From UHGV virus genome UHGV-1964037: DNA of 14,733 bases; one strand, 5' to 3'. Source of the stretch: a virus. How positions within the stretch are numbered: the stretch's first letter is position 1; each line of letters begins with the position of its first letter. Made by a program: the position numbers and the translations under genes. The notes beneath the pieces are model-generated. The model saw nothing but the letters and a program-made list of their open reading frames with translations, had not been told where the DNA came from and searched no databases. Shown here piece after piece: positions 2,144 through 14,733 of this stretch.

Positions 2144-4073
2144 TTATGATGATGCCCGGCTTTCGTTAACTTTGACTGTGACCGTATCAAGCAGTACCGG
2201 ATACGTCGCTTTTGCCCCCGTGATATCTGTCAGCGTCAGCGTATCTGCTGTAAAGCCATCATTTGTCCACATCACCAGGTCAAACGCAGACTGCTCTGCA
2301 TCATCAATCACCGGCACCACTTTTTCGCTGTTATTTCCCGCAAAGCGGAAAACAACTGTATGCCAGTTATGGTCAAATGCCCCAAATGTGCCCAGTTGCG
2401 CATTCGACTCCCCCTTGTGGTACATCAGATTCAGATTTGATGCATCCGTCTGAAGGAAGAAGGACGCCAGCATGCTGTTTGCTGTCGCGCCTGACGCCCA
2501 CTGCGACACCGGCCAGTACAGACCAAAGACAAACTGACCGTTAACCAGTTCGACACCCTCCGGGATCTTAAACCGCACGGCAATTTCACCTCCCTTACTG
2601 AGAAGATTTTTTGCCTCCTCCACCGCAACAGTACGGAACATCTTCCAGGAGGTCAGTTTACCCGGCTGTTTTTCCAGTCGCAGCGCCTTCCTGCCACTGT
2701 CATCCGTCACAGTGCCTTTACCACCGGACGCATTCCACTGCTGCTCTGTCCATACACCACTGCCACTGTTCGCATCATATCCGGCCACCATTCTTGTTAC
2801 GGCTTCAGTATGACCGCCTGCAGAAGTACCTGCACCCTGCTGTTGCGTCGGACCCGCAGAGCCAGACTGTGCATCCCCCGTGGAGGCTGGCGTGGTCGCC
2901 AGCGGTGCAGACTGCCCGCTCAGGAACGGCAGCAAACGCCCGGCTCGCACCAGTATCTCTCCTGCCAGCCGATCTGAAACAATGCCTCTTCGCGCCCAGG
3001 AGCTGAAGTGCGTTTTACGATCGGCTGTCGTCCAGTTACCATTACTGCGTGACGCGGCACCATAGTATCCCGCCGTGATAATGTCCGGATCTTCTGACGG
3101 CTCGTTTGTCGGCACATTCGCACCATGCTCATCCGTCATCAACGGCACAAAGTGAATATTCTGCGCCGCCTTGCCTTTATAGCCTCCGTAAACCGCCTCA
3201 TACTGCACTGCATACTTCGCCTTCCAGTCGTACGTGGTGTCACCGCAAATCCACGGGACGCCGGACGTTGTCCCGCCAATACACTGGTCTGCAATATCTG
3301 CCAGGTCTGCACGGTATTTATTTACCATGGCAAGAAAAAGTGCATTGTGCTCTGCATGTCTCCCCGAACTGACATCTTTTTCCCCCTGCATCCAGATCAC
3401 CGACAACAGCACGTTTTTCGGATTTTTCTTCAGGGCTGCACGCGTTCTGCTGACCAGGTCACGATACAACGGTTTATCCACCCCCCACAGGGAAGAGCCC
3501 GCTGTCGCACCCGACGCCTCATTAAACGCGCCCTCTGCTCCCGCAGTAAATCCCGAATCGCCACGTCCACACGGGACAAGAAGGATCCCCGCACGGGCAG
3601 GCATAAACGGCAGCAGTTTTTTGGCCACATGCAGGGCATGCCCCACACAGCCATACTGCCCTTTATTGAGGTCTGCTTTCGGGTGATTCAGATTACTCAC
3701 GTCCTGCACATCATGCAGACAATGGTCTGCAGGAATAATGTCGTTATATGCACAGGCCGCACCGCCCGGTGTCACCGTGCTGCGACGCGCCAGTTGCTTA
3801 ATACGCGGGTCAGGACGATCATACGTATCCGGCAGCGGCAGGCCCCCCCCCAAAAAAAACCAGGTGGGATGGCCCGCCACCATCACCCGACGGTTGCACC
3901 ACCACCGGTGTGGTGACATCACCTTCCGCCGCAATGGCCTGCATCAGGGTATAGGGCGTGATGGCCACCGGACTGCCAAATGGCTGCCACCCCTCCTTCA
4001 GTTTTTGAGTCAGTCGCTCCGCAAGGTCTGACGGCGACGCCGCCCTGACCACGTCATAGTGTTTAAATGCCAT
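2144..4073 (-). pseudogene. nanS-p-like prophage esterase (DUF1737-like N-terminus plus SGNH/SASA-type esterase domain), frameshifted at a homopolymer tract
   Basis: ATG at 4071-4073 with GGGAGG RBS opens an 84-codon frame (MAFKHYDVVRAASPSDLAERLTQKLKEGWQPFGSPV...) that stops at 3819. A second frame continues from the same tract for 596 codons to 2144 and contains GRGDSGF and other esterase-like blocks. The two frames overlap at the C9/A8 run 3843-3859; removing one base joins them into about 642 codons. Size and placement (between Q and S) match nanS-p genes of Stx and Stx-like phages. Family assignment is from memory, not a search. Confidence 0.55.
3843..3859. repeat. adjacent homopolymers C9 and A8 (coding strand T8 G9) at the frameshift site
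   Basis: Plus-strand cccccccccaaaaaaaa at 3843-3859, read directly from the sequence. Confidence 0.95.
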
Positions 4074-4296: not shown

Positions 4297-4353
4297 GTCC
4301 ATAAGAAAGCCCCTCCGGAGAGGGGCTGGAGAGTGGCGCTATGTGCCATTGCA

Positions 4354-4375
4354 TGGTGCCGGGTGCCTCCCGGTG
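4354..4375. repeat. 22-bp element TGGTGCCGGGTGCCTCCCGGTG, with an exact reverse-complement copy at 14559-14580
   Basis: Exact 22/22 match in inverted orientation about 10.2 kb away. The minus-sense reading CACCGGGAGGCACCCGGCACCA holds three GGCACC hexamers and a CCGGG/CCCGG hairpin. Confidence 0.9.
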
Positions 4376-4644
4376 AGTTCAGTATCAGCACCTGAACCCG
4401 CACAGAAAGGATAAGGGTCGGTGACAAAACACCAGTTGCTGATTGCCCCTCCGCACAGGGGGATTCACCATGCCAGTTTCTTTTAACAAACTCCCCGCAA
4501 ACCAGACAACAGTCAACCGCCTGAATTGTGAGGTATTTAAAAATTTCAACGGGTAACTGATACCCTGCTAATCGCCTGATGCTTTCTTTTTCAGCAACGG
4601 GGAAGCAACAACCACCACACCCACCAGCCGCCCATTTACCACAA

Positions 4645-10799: not shown

Positions 10800-11944
10800 T
10801 TGCGCCCCCTTACCTCTGAAGGGTTCAGCGACAAATTTATGAGACTGGCCAGTAGCGCCGCGTCGTTGATGCGGTCATACAGACTTACAGCCAGCGGGGA
10901 TTCGGCTTTTGCCAACATGGGATAAAGCTGCTGCAGCCAGACCTTGTGGATTACCGACAGGTGGGAGTAAAGCACGCTGGCGTTATCTGCGGCATCGCTC
11001 AGCGTGGATGGCTTTGAAAGCAGTTTTTCCATCTGGTTAAAGGCATTGATGTATGCCTCTTTGAACTGGGCAGCACGTTTACCCGTGAAACCCATAGCAA
11101 GAAACGCAAAGCCGTCGCGGGTTATTTGATAGCAAGGTAGTTTGCGGCCTGTGCAATCGGTGTAATCACTCACCGAAAAATTGCGGGCAGTGAATGATGC
11201 GGAACATTCAAGCGTGCGGATCTTTTTCAGTACATCGTCATGACGTTTGGAGAAGAAGTTGGCAACAGCCAGGGATGAAGTAACAGCCTGACCATCAACG
11301 ATGGCAATTTCAGGTTGAGTGAGGGTTGGGATCGTAGCCATGATGGCAGCCTCCGTATGCAATGGATAACTTCCACCACCGGAAACGCCAATTTCGCTGG
11401 TGGTGAACTGAGCAGGGTTGGCGTAACCGGCGCATACGGAAACCGGCGCACCTTTCGGTGCCCCCACCCAGCCCACCATAATTTGGGTATAGCTGAGTTG
11501 TAGCAACAAAAAAGACGCTAACGCGCCAATTGTCGCCGTATGCAATTCCAGGACGCCAATCCCGACACCCGCTTTATAAGGTGCCTGAACAGTGTAACGT
11601 CCCGGAATGGCAGAATCAATGTGCTGGTGGTCCTTCACACTCAACAAAATCACGCCTGAATTTCCACAAAGGACTAAAGCACTCATGCTGGTAGTCTTTG
11701 CGAAGATAGATAACGCGCTGTGTTTCTGGCTCCCAACGAATAACATGAACATAAAGTCCTCTTCCGTCACGAAACCAGCGGTTAAGTTCCTGCACAACTC
11801 GCCCCCCACAGTCAGGTAAAGTTCTCTGTGGTTACTTACAGCCAGGTGATTTGGTAATCTGCATTCATGCCGTAACAACAGGTGTTCAGCGACGCTGACC
11901 ACCAGCTGTTGCGACAAACGGTTATTTGCCGTTAAACTATTCAT
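10796..11944 (-). CDS. Rha-domain phage regulatory protein with about 200-aa in-frame N-terminal extension of unknown function
   Basis: C-terminal 181 aa (from ATG 11339-11341, preceded by GGAGG) MATIPTLTQPEIAIVDGQAVTSSLAVANFFSKRHDDVLKKIRTLE...ITRDGFAFLAMGFTGKRAAQFKEAYINAFNQME is a clear Rha (Phage_pRha) domain. The frame stays open for a further 201 codons upstream to an ATG at 11942-11944 that overlaps the CII-like stop (ATGA). A 600-nt open frame by chance is unlikely, so the long form is annotated; the true start is uncertain. Confidence 0.5.
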   Translation of the reverse strand: MNSLTANNRLSQQLVVSVAEHLLLRHECRLPNHLAVSNHRELYLTVGGELCRNLTAGFVTEEDFMFMLFVGSQKHSALSIFAKTTSMSALVLCGNSGVILLSVKDHQHIDSAIPGRYTVQAPYKAGVGIGVLELHTATIGALASFLLLQLSYTQIMVGWVGAPKGAPVSVCAGYANPAQFTTSEIGVSGGGSYPLHTEAAIMATIPTLTQPEIAIVDGQAVTSSLAVANFFSKRHDDVLKKIRTLECSASFTARNFSVSDYTDCTGRKLPCYQITRDGFAFLAMGFTGKRAAQFKEAYINAFNQMEKLLSKPSTLSDAADNASVLYSHLSVIHKVWLQQLYPMLAKAESPLAVSLYDRINDAALLASLINLSLNPSEVRGRK

Positions 11945-12736: not shown

Positions 12737-12833
12737 ACGCCCTCCAAACTAAGTTTTATTAGATGCTAATTACAAATCTATCTTTGGTCAATAAAAACTA
12801 AGATTACTTAGCAATTCAAGAAATGGTGCTCCT
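12737..12833. promoter_or_regulatory. divergent cI/cro control region with two 14-bp operator-like palindromes and a candidate PR promoter
   Basis: CTAAGTTTTATTAG at 12749-12762 and CTAAGATTACTTAG at 12798-12811 (inverted CTAAG/CTTAG half-sites). Minus-strand promoter candidate TTGACC (12786-12791), 17 nt, TAGCAT (12763-12768) directed into cro. Confidence 0.55.
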
Positions 12834-13460
12834 ATGGAAACGGTTGGTCAGCGTATAAAAGCTCTGAGAAGAGTTACCGGAACGTCCCAGAAAGAATTGG
12901 GTAAATTTTGTGGAGTAAGCGACGTTGCTGTGGGGTACTGGGAGAAAGACATCAATACCCCTGGTGGGGAGGCACTTTCGAAATTAGCGAAGTTCTTCAA
13001 TACGTCAATAGATTACATTCTTTATGGTGCTGAGTTTGAAGGCAAACTCGTCACAAACATGCGCAGAGTTCCTGTAATATCGTGGGTTCAGGCTGGGCAG
13101 TTTACTGAGTGCAGGGCAGCAGAAGTGTTTAGTGAAGTGGACAAGTGGGTAGATACATCATTAAAGATTGGTGATAACTCATTTGCATTAGAGGTTAAAG
13201 GTGACTCCATGACTAACCCTAATGGCCTCCCAACAATACCAGAAGGCGCAACAGTGATTGTAGATCCAGATGCAGAACCTCGTCATGGAAAAATAGTCAT
13301 CGCTCGACTTGATGGAACAAACGAAGCTACAGTAAAAAAATTAGTCATCGATGGCCCTCAAAAGTTTTTAGTGCCATTAAATCCTCGGTATCCCAACATC
13401 CCTATCAATGGTAATTGCCTTATCATTGGTGTAGTCAAAGGAGTTCAATACGAACTCTAA
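12834..13460 (+). CDS. cI: CI-type prophage repressor (N-terminal HTH plus C-terminal S24 LexA-like autopeptidase domain)
   Basis: 208-aa product. N-terminal HTH (QKELGKFCGVSDVAVGYWEKDINTP), Ala-Gly cleavage site (WVQAGQF), catalytic Ser in GDSM and a Lys-Lys pair (TVKKLV), as in lambda CI/LexA. Confidence 0.85.
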   Translation: METVGQRIKALRRVTGTSQKELGKFCGVSDVAVGYWEKDINTPGGEALSKLAKFFNTSIDYILYGAEFEGKLVTNMRRVPVISWVQAGQFTECRAAEVFSEVDKWVDTSLKIGDNSFALEVKGDSMTNPNGLPTIPEGATVIVDPDAEPRHGKIVIARLDGTNEATVKKLVIDGPQKFLVPLNPRYPNIPINGNCLIIGVVKGVQYEL

Positions 13461-13514
13461 GACCTCTCTTCTCTAACTAAGGCACCGAACTAAGAAAAGT
13501 TTGGTGTTTTCTCT

Positions 13515-13543
13515 TGCCATAATAACTAAGTTAAGTTAGATTT
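13515..13543 (+). promoter_or_regulatory. candidate PL-like promoter overlapping a third operator-like site
   Basis: TTGCCA (13515-13520), 17 nt, TAGATT (13538-13543). The spacer and -10 overlap CTAAGTTAAGTTAG (13526-13539), which matches the OR palindrome CTAAGTTTTATTAG at 11 of 14 positions. Confidence 0.4.
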
Positions 13544-13650
13544 TATATCAAAGATAACGAACAGGCAGGACGCCCACGAAGTAGCCGCCTGGGGCATATA
13601 AAGTCTAGGGTGATTCGTTAGCAACAAAAAAGCGCCCTACAGGACGCTTA

Positions 13651-13662
13651 GCTCTTTAACAA
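13651..13662 (+). promoter_or_regulatory. boxA-like element GCTCTTTAACAA in the leader upstream of the 68-aa ORF
   Basis: Matches the E. coli rrn boxA core (GCTCTTTAACAA, from memory). Preceded by a small hairpin AAGCG..CGCTT (13630-13650) and followed by CAAGT..ACTTG (13677-13694). Confidence 0.4.
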
Positions 13663-13707
13663 TCTGGTCCCCATCAACAAGTAACTGATAACTTGAGGAG
13701 GTGTGAA

Positions 13708-13914
13708 ATGCACAAAACAGAACCCAAAATCGTCGCGCCCGGATACACAAATGAGGAAATTTACGAGTGGATGGCAAAGAAGCTGGCAGCTATAAACCAG
13801 CTTCGTGAAGTGCTGTCTTATCGACAGGAAACAATAGACTCCTTAAAAAAACTGGATCAGGAAATCACGGTTTTATCACAGGATGTTACTTTAGATATTG
13901 TGCAGACAAATTAG
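13708..13914 (+). CDS. hypothetical small protein, 68 aa, predicted helical/coiled-coil
   Basis: ATG at 13708 with strong GAGGAGG RBS 6 nt upstream. Product MHKTEPKIVAPGYTNEEIYEWMAKKLAAINQLREVLSYRQETIDSLKKLDQEITVLSQDVTLDIVQTN. No arginine-rich motif, so not an obvious N homolog. Confidence 0.55.
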   Translation: MHKTEPKIVAPGYTNEEIYEWMAKKLAAINQLREVLSYRQETIDSLKKLDQEITVLSQDVTLDIVQTN

Positions 13915-14320
13915 GATCCCATTCATTTTCGTCAAAATCATCAAAGTGATGAATTTGTGATCTCCAGTCTCGATAATCTAAAAATTTCTGGGCGGTTACG
14001 CTTATTTTATCAAGTGTGAGTTCATCCTGAATTGAAAGAAGAAGTTCATCAAATTTCATCTCATTAATCTGTTTTGGCATCCAGTGATGCTTCATCAGAA
14101 TAAGGTGAACCAGAGCCTTTTTCCCATTCAACTGATTATAGGGAGTGCCGAATTTCTTCCGGTGCTCATGTAAGACAAGGTCCAGAAGAGTAAGTAATGT
14201 TGCCCTTGATTCCACTTTGCTTATTTCGACTGATGACACTACCCCACTGATTTCAATGCCCCGATACTTTCCAACATTTTCACAGTGGGATTTGTACAGC
14301 GTGTAGATATTACCGGACAT
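13886..14320 (-). CDS. hypothetical protein, 144 aa, in AT-rich moron-like DNA next to cI
   Basis: ATG at 14318-14320 with AAGGAAAAG upstream. Product MSGNIYTLYKSHCENVGKYRGIEISGVVSSVEISKV...KFLDYRDWRSQIHHFDDFDENEWDPNLSAQYLK. Region looks about 40% GC against about 52% around it (by-eye estimate). The 3' end overlaps the convergent 68-aa ORF by 29 bp. Confidence 0.55.
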   Translation of the reverse strand: MSGNIYTLYKSHCENVGKYRGIEISGVVSSVEISKVESRATLLTLLDLVLHEHRKKFGTPYNQLNGKKALVHLILMKHHWMPKQINEMKFDELLLSIQDELTLDKISVTAQKFLDYRDWRSQIHHFDDFDENEWDPNLSAQYLK

Positions 14321-14335
14321 TTCTTTTCCTTTTGC

Positions 14336-14387
14336 GTTGTTGGGGATAACCAGATTAACCGAATCCTTGTTGTTGGGGAATAACCAG
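14336..14387. repeat. two direct repeats GTTGTTGGGGA(A)TAACCAG immediately upstream of the 144-aa gene
   Basis: 14336-14353 and 14369-14387, 18 and 19 bp, differing by a single A insertion, start-to-start 33 bp. In minus sense each contains TTATCCCCA or TTATTCCCCA, loosely DnaA-box-like. Confidence 0.85.
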
Positions 14388-14604
14388 GTCCACCTCGCCT
14401 GATGTGGCTAAAAGCAGGCACATAACAGCTAAGTATTTTTAACCAGAGAGAATCCTTAGCGTTGTGGTGAATGCGGCTCAGCGCACGCGGGTTAAGGTTG
14501 AGGCTGACAGTCGACCTTCTGTGGATACCCACCCGTCTGGTGTGCAACCTTCGCCAGGCACCGGGAGGCACCCGGCACCACAACTTTATGCTGTGTGTAG
14601 TCCT

Positions 14605-14651
14605 GGAGGTACCAGTTTGTACCCTTGCTTCCGGCTGGTACCGTCCTTTTT
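14605..14651 (+). terminator. terminator-like hairpin with T5 run on the plus strand
   Basis: GGAGGTACCAG / CTGGTACC(G)TCC stem with a 19-nt loop, followed by TTTTT (14647-14651). Lies about 25 nt downstream of the 22-bp element copy. Confidence 0.4.
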
Positions 14652-14733
14652 ACAAAACAGAGAAGAGCATCACCGGACGACGGGCTCATAACCCAATCCA
14701 TCCGGGCGGCTGCCACCGCAGGTGTTCTTCTCT

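Follow-up and report, generated by a model that had tools for sequence, protein, structure and literature searches.

The window, a stretch of 14,733 nucleotides (nt) from UHGV virus genome UHGV-1964037, is an SfIV/SfV/SfII/e14-like lambdoid prophage of Escherichia coli. Along its plus strand, a cI-type repressor gene is followed by a promoter-like site, a 68-codon open reading frame (ORF), an ECs1072-family gene, the element described here, and then yfdP, yfdQ, yfdR and further genes up to xis and int. The element, about 220 nt long (14428–14651, plus strand), is a composite unit of non-coding RNA consisting of a 5′ hairpin (P0), a folded domain, a single-stranded segment and an intrinsic terminator. 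Most of it (14461–14651) had been flagged by a first-pass annotation as a candidate structured RNA, an interpretation that proves right in outline: the stretch forms a conserved, non-coding RNA within the leader of the prophage's early operon. The parts of the unit, together with a conserved block immediately upstream, are as follows.

14390–14427, plus strand: upstream leader block CCACCUCGCCUGAUGUGGCUAAAAGCAGGCACAUAACA, conserved, a possible H-type pseudoknot
14428–14460, plus strand: P0 hairpin, GCUAAG (14428–14433) with CUUAGC (14455–14460), abutting P1 and covarying
14461–14469, plus strand: 5′ strand of stem P1, GUUGUGGUG, with eight of the nine pairs changed on both sides
14473–14488, plus strand: P2 hairpin, GCGGC/GC(A)CGC with pentaloop UCAGC and a bulged A, 98.7% paired, four of five pairs compensatory
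14494–14500, plus strand: 5′ strand of the pseudoknot, AAGGUUG, whose partner is the P4 loop CAACCUU (14545–14551)
14535–14559, plus strand: P4 hairpin, GUCUGGUG/CGCCAGGC, with a 9-nt loop UGCAACCUU that forms the 3′ strand of the pseudoknot
14561–14575, plus strand: P5 hairpin, CCGGG-AGGCA-CCCGG, the core of a repeated 22-mer and near-invariant
14576–14584, plus strand: 3′ strand of stem P1, CACCACAAC, found by the inverted-repeat scan and in both alignments
14589–14602, plus strand: KilS-type seed UGCUGUGUGUAGUC, conserved and single-stranded
14605–14651, plus strand: intrinsic terminator, GGAGGUACCAG...CUGGUACCGUCC plus U5, −21.6 kcal/mol, z = −2.7, with a stem that covaries with that of KilS

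The flag had been raised by three features, all of which we recovered. The 9-bp stem pairs GTTGTGGTG (14461–14469) with its full complement at 14576–14584, leaving 106 nt between the two strands. The stretch enclosed by the stem takes in the 22-mer CACCGGGAGGCACCCGGCACCA, which has exactly two copies in the window (4354–4375, minus strand, and 14559–14580, plus strand; chance expectation 0), the copy here being the second. A hairpin (14605–14646) followed by a T5 run (14647–14651) begins 20 nt past the stem. The caution attached to the flag, that the stem alone could be chance, was apt, as the same scan of 2.2 kb gave six perfect 9-nt inverted repeats. Folding of the single sequence yielded weak z-scores (−1.6 for 14431–14653 and −1.9 for 14461–14584), and we therefore did not take it as evidence; the reverse strand folds more poorly than the plus strand. 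We judged the stem to be real because its pairs covary across homologues.

A BLAST comparison with phage genomes detected the element at 98–100% identity in SfIV, SfV and SfII, at 88–90% in ST64B and 118970_sal3, at 77% in Cronobacter phiES15 and at 71–72% in the P1-like phages SJ46 and JL22. Further copies were gathered by two pattern scans of public collections, giving 122 representatives after the removal of near-duplicates, and the collected genera include Escherichia, Salmonella, Klebsiella, Enterobacter, Citrobacter, Kosakonia, Raoultella, Pantoea, Erwinia and Rahnella, among others. Conservation of the element extends from Escherichia to Cronobacter, and that of the domain to many further Enterobacterales genera, while the flanks diverge. 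In a MAFFT alignment of 91 representatives, 90.0% of the cells pair, compared with 38–47% when the partners are slid, and the 329 double-sided changes exceed the 120 ± 9.5 of shuffled alignments (0 of 500 shuffles reach the observed value). A covariance model built from this alignment gives 84.3 bits (E = 2e-17) for the window element and 89.4 bits for a second, canonical copy in the window (4348–4476). In the model-based alignment of 139 distinct sequences, which leans towards the structure it was built on, 93.6% of the cells are paired (41–45% with slid partners), double-sided changes number 639 against 186 ± 14 after shuffling (again 0 of 500) and compensatory changes occur in 21 of the 25 pairs. 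Covariation across homologues, which the first-pass annotation had named as one way to check the structure, thus finds its pairing conserved and its pairs covarying far beyond the controls.

The alignments define a five-helix, pseudoknotted domain of about 124 nt, closed by the 9-bp stem P1. Within P1, the inner GGUG/CACC pairs are nearly fixed across the family and the outer pairs covary: the fifth pair changes from U-A to C-G, the outermost from G-C to A-U, and the entire stem is replaced in distant copies. The junction J1/2 is AAU across the family. P2 comprises 5 bp with one bulge and a pentaloop UNNGC, and the window form GCGGC/GC(A)CGC swaps pair for pair with the canonical CCCCC/GG(A)GGG, as well as with CCUUUC/GAAAGG and CCUACC/GGUAGG elsewhere; a variable insert separates P2 from P4. 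P4 spans 6–10 bp across the family and has a loop of about 9 nt. P5, of the family form CCNGG-AGGCA-CCNGG, abuts the 3′ strand of P1 and has a compensatory variant, CCUGG/CCAGG, in the Qin and Rac type. No variation is seen at G8–T14 (GGUGAAU) or in the P5 loop across the 91 aligned sequences; this invariance is partly by construction, because GGTGAAT and most of P5 (CNGGAGGCACCNGGC) were set by the search patterns and are uninformative in the counts. Frequent exchanges of G-U for A-U pairs, together with two U-G pairs in the P4 of the window, identify the plus strand as the RNA strand. The first-pass annotation had spoken of a leftward transcript, which holds in the lambda map convention, in which this is the PL-side operon, but not in the window, where the RNA is the plus strand.

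MAFFT misregisters P4 and the pseudoknot between subfamilies, and we therefore judged P4 on the model-based alignment, where all six pairs are compensatory and 93.9% paired, and the pseudoknot by comparing cognate with non-cognate strands. In this permutation test, complementarity of at least 6 nt is present in 75% of cognate pairs and 21% of non-cognate pairs (58 distinct loops). The two strands change together, as AAGGCUG/CAGCCUU in phiES15, CAGUUAA/UUAACUG in Qin and Rac, UGGUUAU/AUAACCA in the P1-like phages and AUCAGC/GCUGAU in the canonical copy of the window, with dozens more versions elsewhere. A per-sequence loop-shuffle test of the pseudoknot had no power, its search space being too large. 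The segment AAGGUUGA (14494–14501), which contains the 5′ strand, can pair either locally with UCGACCUU (14511–14518, in the minimum free energy fold) or with the P4 loop (14545–14551). The latter is the alternative supported by covariation, and the local partner is weaker in ST64B.

The stem homologous to P0 also covaries, reading UGAAGCGCAUU/GAAUGCGCUUCA in phiES15 and GAUAAGAGUU/AACUCUUAUC in ST64B, with further versions in sal3 and JL22. By our own reading, the equivalent stem in Qin contains a mapped RNase III site (10.1101/2023.04.14.536235). In Salmonella phage 118970_sal3, the loop of the equivalent stem holds a fragment resembling a tRNA T arm (GGTTCGATTCC), pointing to an old remnant of an attachment site or tRNA that was inserted in the leader. 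Upstream of P0, the leader block offers a candidate H-type pseudoknot, identified by eye, with S1 CCAC/GUGG, S2 GCCUG/CAGGC and an A-rich loop as a third strand. Versions of the block with compensatory differences, again identified by eye, recur in phiES15, mEp460_ev081, K-12 Rac (CCACC..GCCCGG..GGUGG..CCGGGC) and K-12 e14. As the sole conserved RNA element 5′ of the small RNA (sRNA) terminator in all early-left leaders inspected, it is a candidate antitermination or processing signal.

The ORFs overlapping the element in public annotations include ymfH (b1142) in K-12 e14, hypothetical proteins annotated in SfIV on the plus and minus strands, and a pseudogene called as frameshifted by PGAP. 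The first-pass annotation had regarded such ORFs as non-coding, and their evolution bears this out. Among 25 close variants, variable sites number 27, 25 and 31 at codon positions 1, 2 and 3, and single-nucleotide indels occur; ORF lengths and stop-codon positions vary between copies, and a Pfam search of the overlapping ORFs gave no match. On these grounds we rejected a ymfH-like protein-coding gene as the identity of the element. In the same 25 variants the domain is the most conserved part, with a variability of 14.5% against 36% downstream. The e14 copy, 92.5% identical and directly upstream of xisE–intE, has a damaged P5 hairpin (loop GGGGGCA, strand CCCGA). To judge from these patterns of variation, the b1142 annotation probably describes an RNA and not a protein. 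The public gene calls and the unimpressive single-sequence z-scores could be taken to mean that nothing functional lies here beyond a chance inverted repeat in a protein-coding gene, whether ymfH-like or the SfIV antisense ORF. With covariation far above the shuffled and slid controls, frameshifting indels, no excess of third-position changes, no Pfam match, and conservation across Enterobacterales genera while the flanks diverge, we consider this extremely improbable, and indeed refuted as far as sequence analysis goes.

The first copy of the 22-mer ties the element to a known family, that of STnc100, an sRNA of Gammaproteobacteria prophages.

4297–4502, minus strand: canonical STnc100 (RF02076, 143.2 bits), containing the first copy of the 22-mer

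At gathering thresholds, Rfam returned no match at the 14461–14651 site. A permissive scan matched STnc100 end to end at 14431–14653 (plus strand, 38.4 bits, E = 1.5e-6, model positions 1–206), a range that takes in the P0 region, and the second 22-mer copy therefore marks a diverged paralogue of the STnc100 at 4297–4502. Other early-left copies score 34–43 bits at model positions 31–147. The two RNAs share a 5′ hairpin, a multi-helix domain closed by P1, a linker and an intrinsic terminator; the 22-mer, comprising P5 and the 3′ strand of P1, is identical, and P2, P4 and the pseudoknot are conserved by covariation. A joint alignment of window and canonical types gave 90–94% pairing, with compensatory changes in P1, P2, P4 and P5. 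Both are borne by prophages and lie on the operon strand. As in STnc100, an intrinsic terminator stands 3′ of the domain (14605–14651), predicting a discrete RNA of about 200 nt. The element differs from STnc100 in its P2 (GCGGC/GCACGC, versus CCCCC/GGAGGG) and its pseudoknot sequence, in its position in an early-left leader rather than in the late region between Q and holin or esterase genes, in having no adjacent promoter, and in its 3′ module, which is KilS-like and not the STnc100 tail.

STnc100 copies in enterohaemorrhagic E. coli (EHEC) accumulate as discrete RNAs, and the overlapping sRNA EcOnc27 is Hfq-bound (PMC5331693, PMC12711010); on northern blots the full-length, terminated species of about 200 nt reaches high levels (PMC5331693). 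The relation of PasD to STnc100 has been recognised by Zhu, Shabalina and Storz (bioRxiv 2026, 10.64898/2026.05.13.724894), and the likeness of our element to PasD is taken from that published relation. From the alignments and shared covariation, we assign the domain to an STnc100/PasD superfamily. In the window, the canonical STnc100 lies directly upstream of a 596-codon ORF (2144–3934, minus strand), and matching E. coli records carry a SASA-family esterase within the aligned 14.7-kb region; STnc100 before an esterase is the arrangement described for PasD and STnc100 in enteropathogenic E. coli and EHEC. We found no convincing promoter beside the canonical STnc100 at 4297–4502 (minus strand).

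The 3′ part of the element (14589–14651) is, by the criteria of a shared seed and a covarying stem, homologous to the Hfq sRNA KilS of the K-12 Rac prophage. The KilS core AUUGCUGUGUGUAGUCCUGG-CGGCAUCAG...CUGAUGUCCGCCCUUUUU aligns with window positions 14586–14651, UAUGCUGUGUGUAGUCCUGG-AGGUACCAG...CUGGUACCGUCCUUUUU, and the seed is identical. In both, the segment UGCUGUGUGUAGUC(C/U)UGG precedes a long, rho-independent terminator hairpin, whose stem reads GGCGGCAUCAG/CUGAUGUCCGCC in KilS and varies compensatorily in the window; both also lie in an early-left leader next to the same structured domain. The seed motif UG[C/U]UGUGUG[U/A]AG[U/A]C persists across 28 distinct contexts, in front of five different terminator stems, and ST64B and phiES15 have unrelated terminators at the position of the window terminator. 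KilS is a northern-validated, Hfq-associated sRNA from the kilR 5′ untranslated region, for which a start from its own promoter was judged possible; its Hfq-dependent accumulation and RIL-seq partners were shown for the K-12 RNA (PMC8175672). KilS (98 nt) starts in the 3′ strand of P0. The order 5′ of kilR in Rac is the conserved leader block, the P0 stem, KilS (b4833), the domain (75.3 bits) and the kilR start codon. The module thus lies 76–83 nt 5′ of the domain in the Rac type, with the domain directly before kilR, and 13–15 nt 3′ of it in the window (13 nt), ST64B and phiES15, where the window continues with yfdP and not kilR; the module order is swapped.

The covarying domain, the STnc100 match and the KilS-like terminator module all bear out the earlier suggestion of a leader RNA or an sRNA, which are probably not alternatives. 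The pseudoknot, the tie of the 22-mer to canonical STnc100, the KilS homology and the occurrence of the module upstream of dicB, kilR and tciA go beyond the first-pass annotation.

The domain is widespread. K-12 has three copies: in the dicF–dicB spacer of Qin (NC_000913, about 1649452–1649583, plus strand, 78.9 bits), in the kilS–kilR spacer of Rac (about 1418260–1418392, minus strand) and at e14 ‘ymfH’ (about 1201259–1201385, minus strand). Among 5,426 complete E. coli genomes, 4,633 carry the Qin type and 2,105 the window type. In the C1-controlled ban operon of P7, D6, SJ46 and JL22 the domain immediately precedes tciA/terB; it also stands before tciA of phage P1 and, in P1-like phages, among tRNA genes. 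The tciA leaders (phage P1, P7, D6 and SJ46; 87.8 bits) and the dicF–dicB spacer have the same domain on the operon strand; these copies follow sRNA (DicF) or tRNA genes and, unlike the window element, are not followed by a terminator, the start codon lying 15–35 nt past stem P1. In many dicB-type copies P1 is extended to 21–22 bp with full covariation. In the literature searched, no function or structure was described for the dicB, kilR or tciA leader domain and none for the pseudoknot, and a search for the element's own sequence gave nothing relevant; papers on RNase III targets held no information on the dicF–dicB spacer, nor did the OxyS/kilR paper on the kilR leader.

A census of 192 distinct domain instances separated two types, an early-left type with a GCGGC P2 and the canonical type. 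In the early-left type, 86 instances have no terminator and are followed within 15–38 nt by DicB, KilR/Kil, TciA or a few other ORFs, and 23, of the window type, by a KilS-like terminator. About half of the canonical copies have a terminator within 130 nt, and they precede holins, LpxR-like genes, an esterase and similar genes. Upstream of many of them, in other genera, stands a near-consensus σ70 promoter (for example, TTGACA-17-TAAATT) with the end of its −10 element about 8 nt from GGUG, which would make P1 the start of transcription. In such copies, GGUGAAU would fall at about +8 to +14 of a late-type transcript; the σ-dependent pause elements of Q-controlled promoters are located around the +8 to +14 region. 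In Pantoea prophages, five or six copies stand in tandem between a Q-like gene and holin, three of them 7–15 nt apart; some copies have GGUG/CACC replaced, for example by CUAU/AUAG, and one has a different P5.

The setting of the element in the window points to transcription from farther upstream.

12834–13460, plus strand: cI-type repressor gene, ymfK-like (Peptidase_S24 and HTH)
13514–13542, plus strand: candidate PL-type promoter from the consensus scan, TTGCCA-17-TAGATT, overlapping the operator-like CTAAG..TTAG
13886–14320, minus strand: ECs1072-family gene, convergent, between the putative PL and the element

The operator motif at the candidate PL is common to the cI/cro intergenic region: operator-like motifs (CTAAG-N4-CTTAG and variants) lie at 12746–12811, between cI and cro, and at 13524–13541, a layout around cI that resembles lambda OR/OL. 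At the equivalent site in Res13-Lact-EB12-05, which has an identical element, TTGACA-16-CATAAT (11 of 12 matches) stands just past the cI-operon terminator. In SfIV, ST64B, sal3, phiES15 and e14, too, the element is placed 3′ of the cI side and 5′ of the early-left genes. Scanning 13500–14733 gave no promoter-like site with at least 9 of 12 matches besides the two upstream ones, and there is none between the terminator and yfdP; among 74 early-left-type copies, none has such a site (at least 9 of 12) within 110 nt. Because no promoter-like site adjoins the element or precedes yfdP, we read it as part of the early-left leader, with 13514–13542 as its putative promoter.

This bears on the idea of a free-standing sRNA gene, expressed in the lysogen independently of the early-left operon from its own promoter in the 140-bp gap after the ECs1072-family gene. 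Many canonical STnc100-type copies do have a consensus promoter starting at P1 and then a terminator, a start of KilS from a promoter of its own was judged possible (PMC8175672), and a weak −10-like TATTTT (14433–14438) occurs in the P0 loop. However, the promoter scans of the window and of the 74 copies oppose it, as does Reg-Seq, in which the region upstream of K-12 ymfH was promoter-silent in nearly all conditions (PMC12133099), and we regard such a gene as unlikely. Among terminated late-leader RNAs, lambda 6S RNA (the PR′–tR′ leader) and StxS are constitutive transcripts. The canonical copies resemble them in lying between Q and lysis genes, often with a consensus promoter at P1 and a terminator; the window element differs from them in its early-left rather than late operon, in having no promoter of its own and in showing no sequence relationship. 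We also rejected as identities svsR, which is located in the 3′ end of cI (PMC12803456), and HnrS, a 66-nt sRNA of the late region (PMC13502914). The svsR sRNA (C0293-like) is from NC-SV, a lambdoid prophage at the e14 site (PMC12803456).

Taken together, we favour, with a probability of roughly 0.55, the reading of the unit as a terminated leader, one that would gate the early-left operon and release a KilS-type sRNA on a stable 5′ domain. Transcription would start at the repressor-controlled promoter downstream of cI, to which we assign it for want of a promoter-like site belonging to the element itself. The terminator (14651) would stop most polymerases and so keep yfdP–xis–int off barring read-through, and the stop would release an RNA of at least about 200 nt, possibly trimmed at P0. 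The 3′ end of this RNA would act as a KilS-type, Hfq-dependent base-pairing sRNA, carried on a very stable 5′ domain that, on a conservative reading, would be a stabilising or protein-binding scaffold or, alternatively, a regulatory platform. What we infer here from sequence comparison are the ends of the transcript, its binding to Hfq, its action as a barrier and whatever role the domain has; the structure and its covariation, the two homologies, the non-coding nature, the operon position and the lack of a nearby promoter-like site are the observations on which the model is built. The model is compatible with the K-12 data, in which ymfH falls in the same iModulon as xisE and intE (PMC12133099), and with the Reg-Seq result given above.

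Several observations weigh against it. The element misses the Rfam membership score for STnc100 (38.4 bits against a gathering cut-off of 47). The model gives the pseudoknotted domain, the most conserved part, no specific job, and both the tandem arrays and the copies that stand without any terminator directly upstream of dicB, kilR and tciA fit a plain stabilising role poorly. The operon must pass a strong terminator though no N-like gene is visible. Finally, the minus-strand ECs1072-family gene lies between the putative PL and the element, and given this intervening gene there may be a weak dedicated promoter in 14321–14460.

A rival reading is that the domain is a cis-acting regulatory RNA that decides whether polymerase passes the terminator into toxic or excision genes, by sensing a ligand or protein or by modifying the polymerase as HK022 put or Bacillus EAR does, with the sRNA as a by-product. 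It has one trait generally expected of a riboswitch, a multi-helix junction and pseudoknot with invariant unpaired nucleotides in junction and loop, partly fixed by the search patterns, and the terminator follows 20 nt later. With neither an N-like gene nor a promoter downstream in evidence, polymerase must pass this terminator to transcribe the early-left genes. The domain opens both types of antitermination-dependent operon, early-left and late (Q to holin), stands at fixed short distances (15–38 nt) from kil, kilR, dicB and tciA, where there is no terminator, and, like putL/putR, is found both at the transcript start (−10 ending about 8 nt before P1) and inside operons; the alternative pairing of AAGGUUGA with the P4 loop or its local partner is a possible switch. 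Against this, the sRNA terminator in Rac and Qin is upstream of the domain and out of its reach, the 21–22-bp P1 of many dicB-type copies is too stable for a P1 switch, no antiterminator pairing common to three terminator types was found by eye, six tandem copies are unusual for riboswitches, and terminated STnc100 RNAs accumulate to high levels (PMC5331693). HK022 put is alike in position, as an RNA element upstream of a terminator in the early operon of a lambdoid phage without an N-type antiterminator, and both it and the domain occur promoter-proximally and operon-internally. We rejected put as the identity of the element: the HK022 immunity and early region contains no covariance-model match, blastn found no similarity, and put, at about 73 nt, is a V-shaped RNA with two stems (PMC9378689), compared with five helices and a pseudoknot over 124 nt here. 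A cis-regulatory function is a tentative possibility that we place well below the terminated-leader model. No more probable is that the domain, of about 125 nt, would constitute a new class of cis-regulatory RNA gating kil, kilR, dicB, tciA, xis–int and holin operons across Enterobacterales; if so, it would include three K-12 cryptic prophages, and STnc100 and PasD would be its terminated forms.

Another possibility is that the domain is a module of RNA processing or stability, an RNase III or RNase P substrate or a self-cleaving ribozyme, that splits the sRNA from the mRNA and sets the mRNA 5′ end. The domain is always found at the boundary between sRNA module and ORF. RNase III could act on the extended, fully covarying P1 of dicB-type copies or on P0, whose Qin equivalent, as we read it, contains the RNase III site mentioned above. 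The P1 and P5 helices, if stacked like the acceptor and T arms of tRNA, could attract RNase P, and in P1-like phages the domain sits among tRNA genes. Several bacterial self-cleaving ribozymes form tandem arrays in phage late leaders, as the domain does. In the window, however, P1 (9 bp) and P0 (6 bp) are too short for RNase III; ARAGORN finds nothing tRNA-like in the element, so that we rejected a tRNA-like identity, and no Rfam ribozyme family matches. RNase recognition alone needs no elaborate conserved core, and the full-length STnc100 of about 200 nt on northern blots (PMC5331693) argues against efficient self-cleavage. We consider a processing module improbable, slightly more so than a free-standing sRNA gene.

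Two further features of the window were observed. A C4 antisense RNA (11396–11483, minus strand, 80.7 bits) adjoins isrK (11508–11584, minus strand, 58.9 bits), both detected by Rfam at gathering thresholds; the pair corresponds to the immI-type antirepressor control region of P1 and P7 and recurs in ST64B. In addition, a motif of about 20 nt, TTGTTGGGGA(A)TAACCAG(A/G)T, has three copies: two direct repeats just 5′ of the leader block (14336–14360 and 14369–14394) and an inverted one (13661–13680) after a bidirectional-looking terminator (13630–13649). The copies flank the small ORF and the ECs1072-family gene, and candidate identities for the motif are an operator, a recombination scar and a moron boundary.

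If our interpretation is correct, a gene call in thousands of E. coli genomes, including ymfH (b1142), would be a structured RNA, and the leaders of the cell-division inhibitors dicB and kilR/kil, as well as that of P1 tciA, would have the same folded core as STnc100 and PasD. That conserved core makes the element more interesting than an ordinary prophage sRNA. The shared core would link the literature on prophage sRNAs to the control of toxic cryptic-prophage genes, with e14, Rac and Qin as test loci in K-12. An N-type antiterminator is not visible in the early-left operons of SfV, ST64B, Rac and Qin-type phages despite the strong terminators in their leaders, and the conserved leader RNAs would be obvious candidates for silencing, and then opening, these operons.

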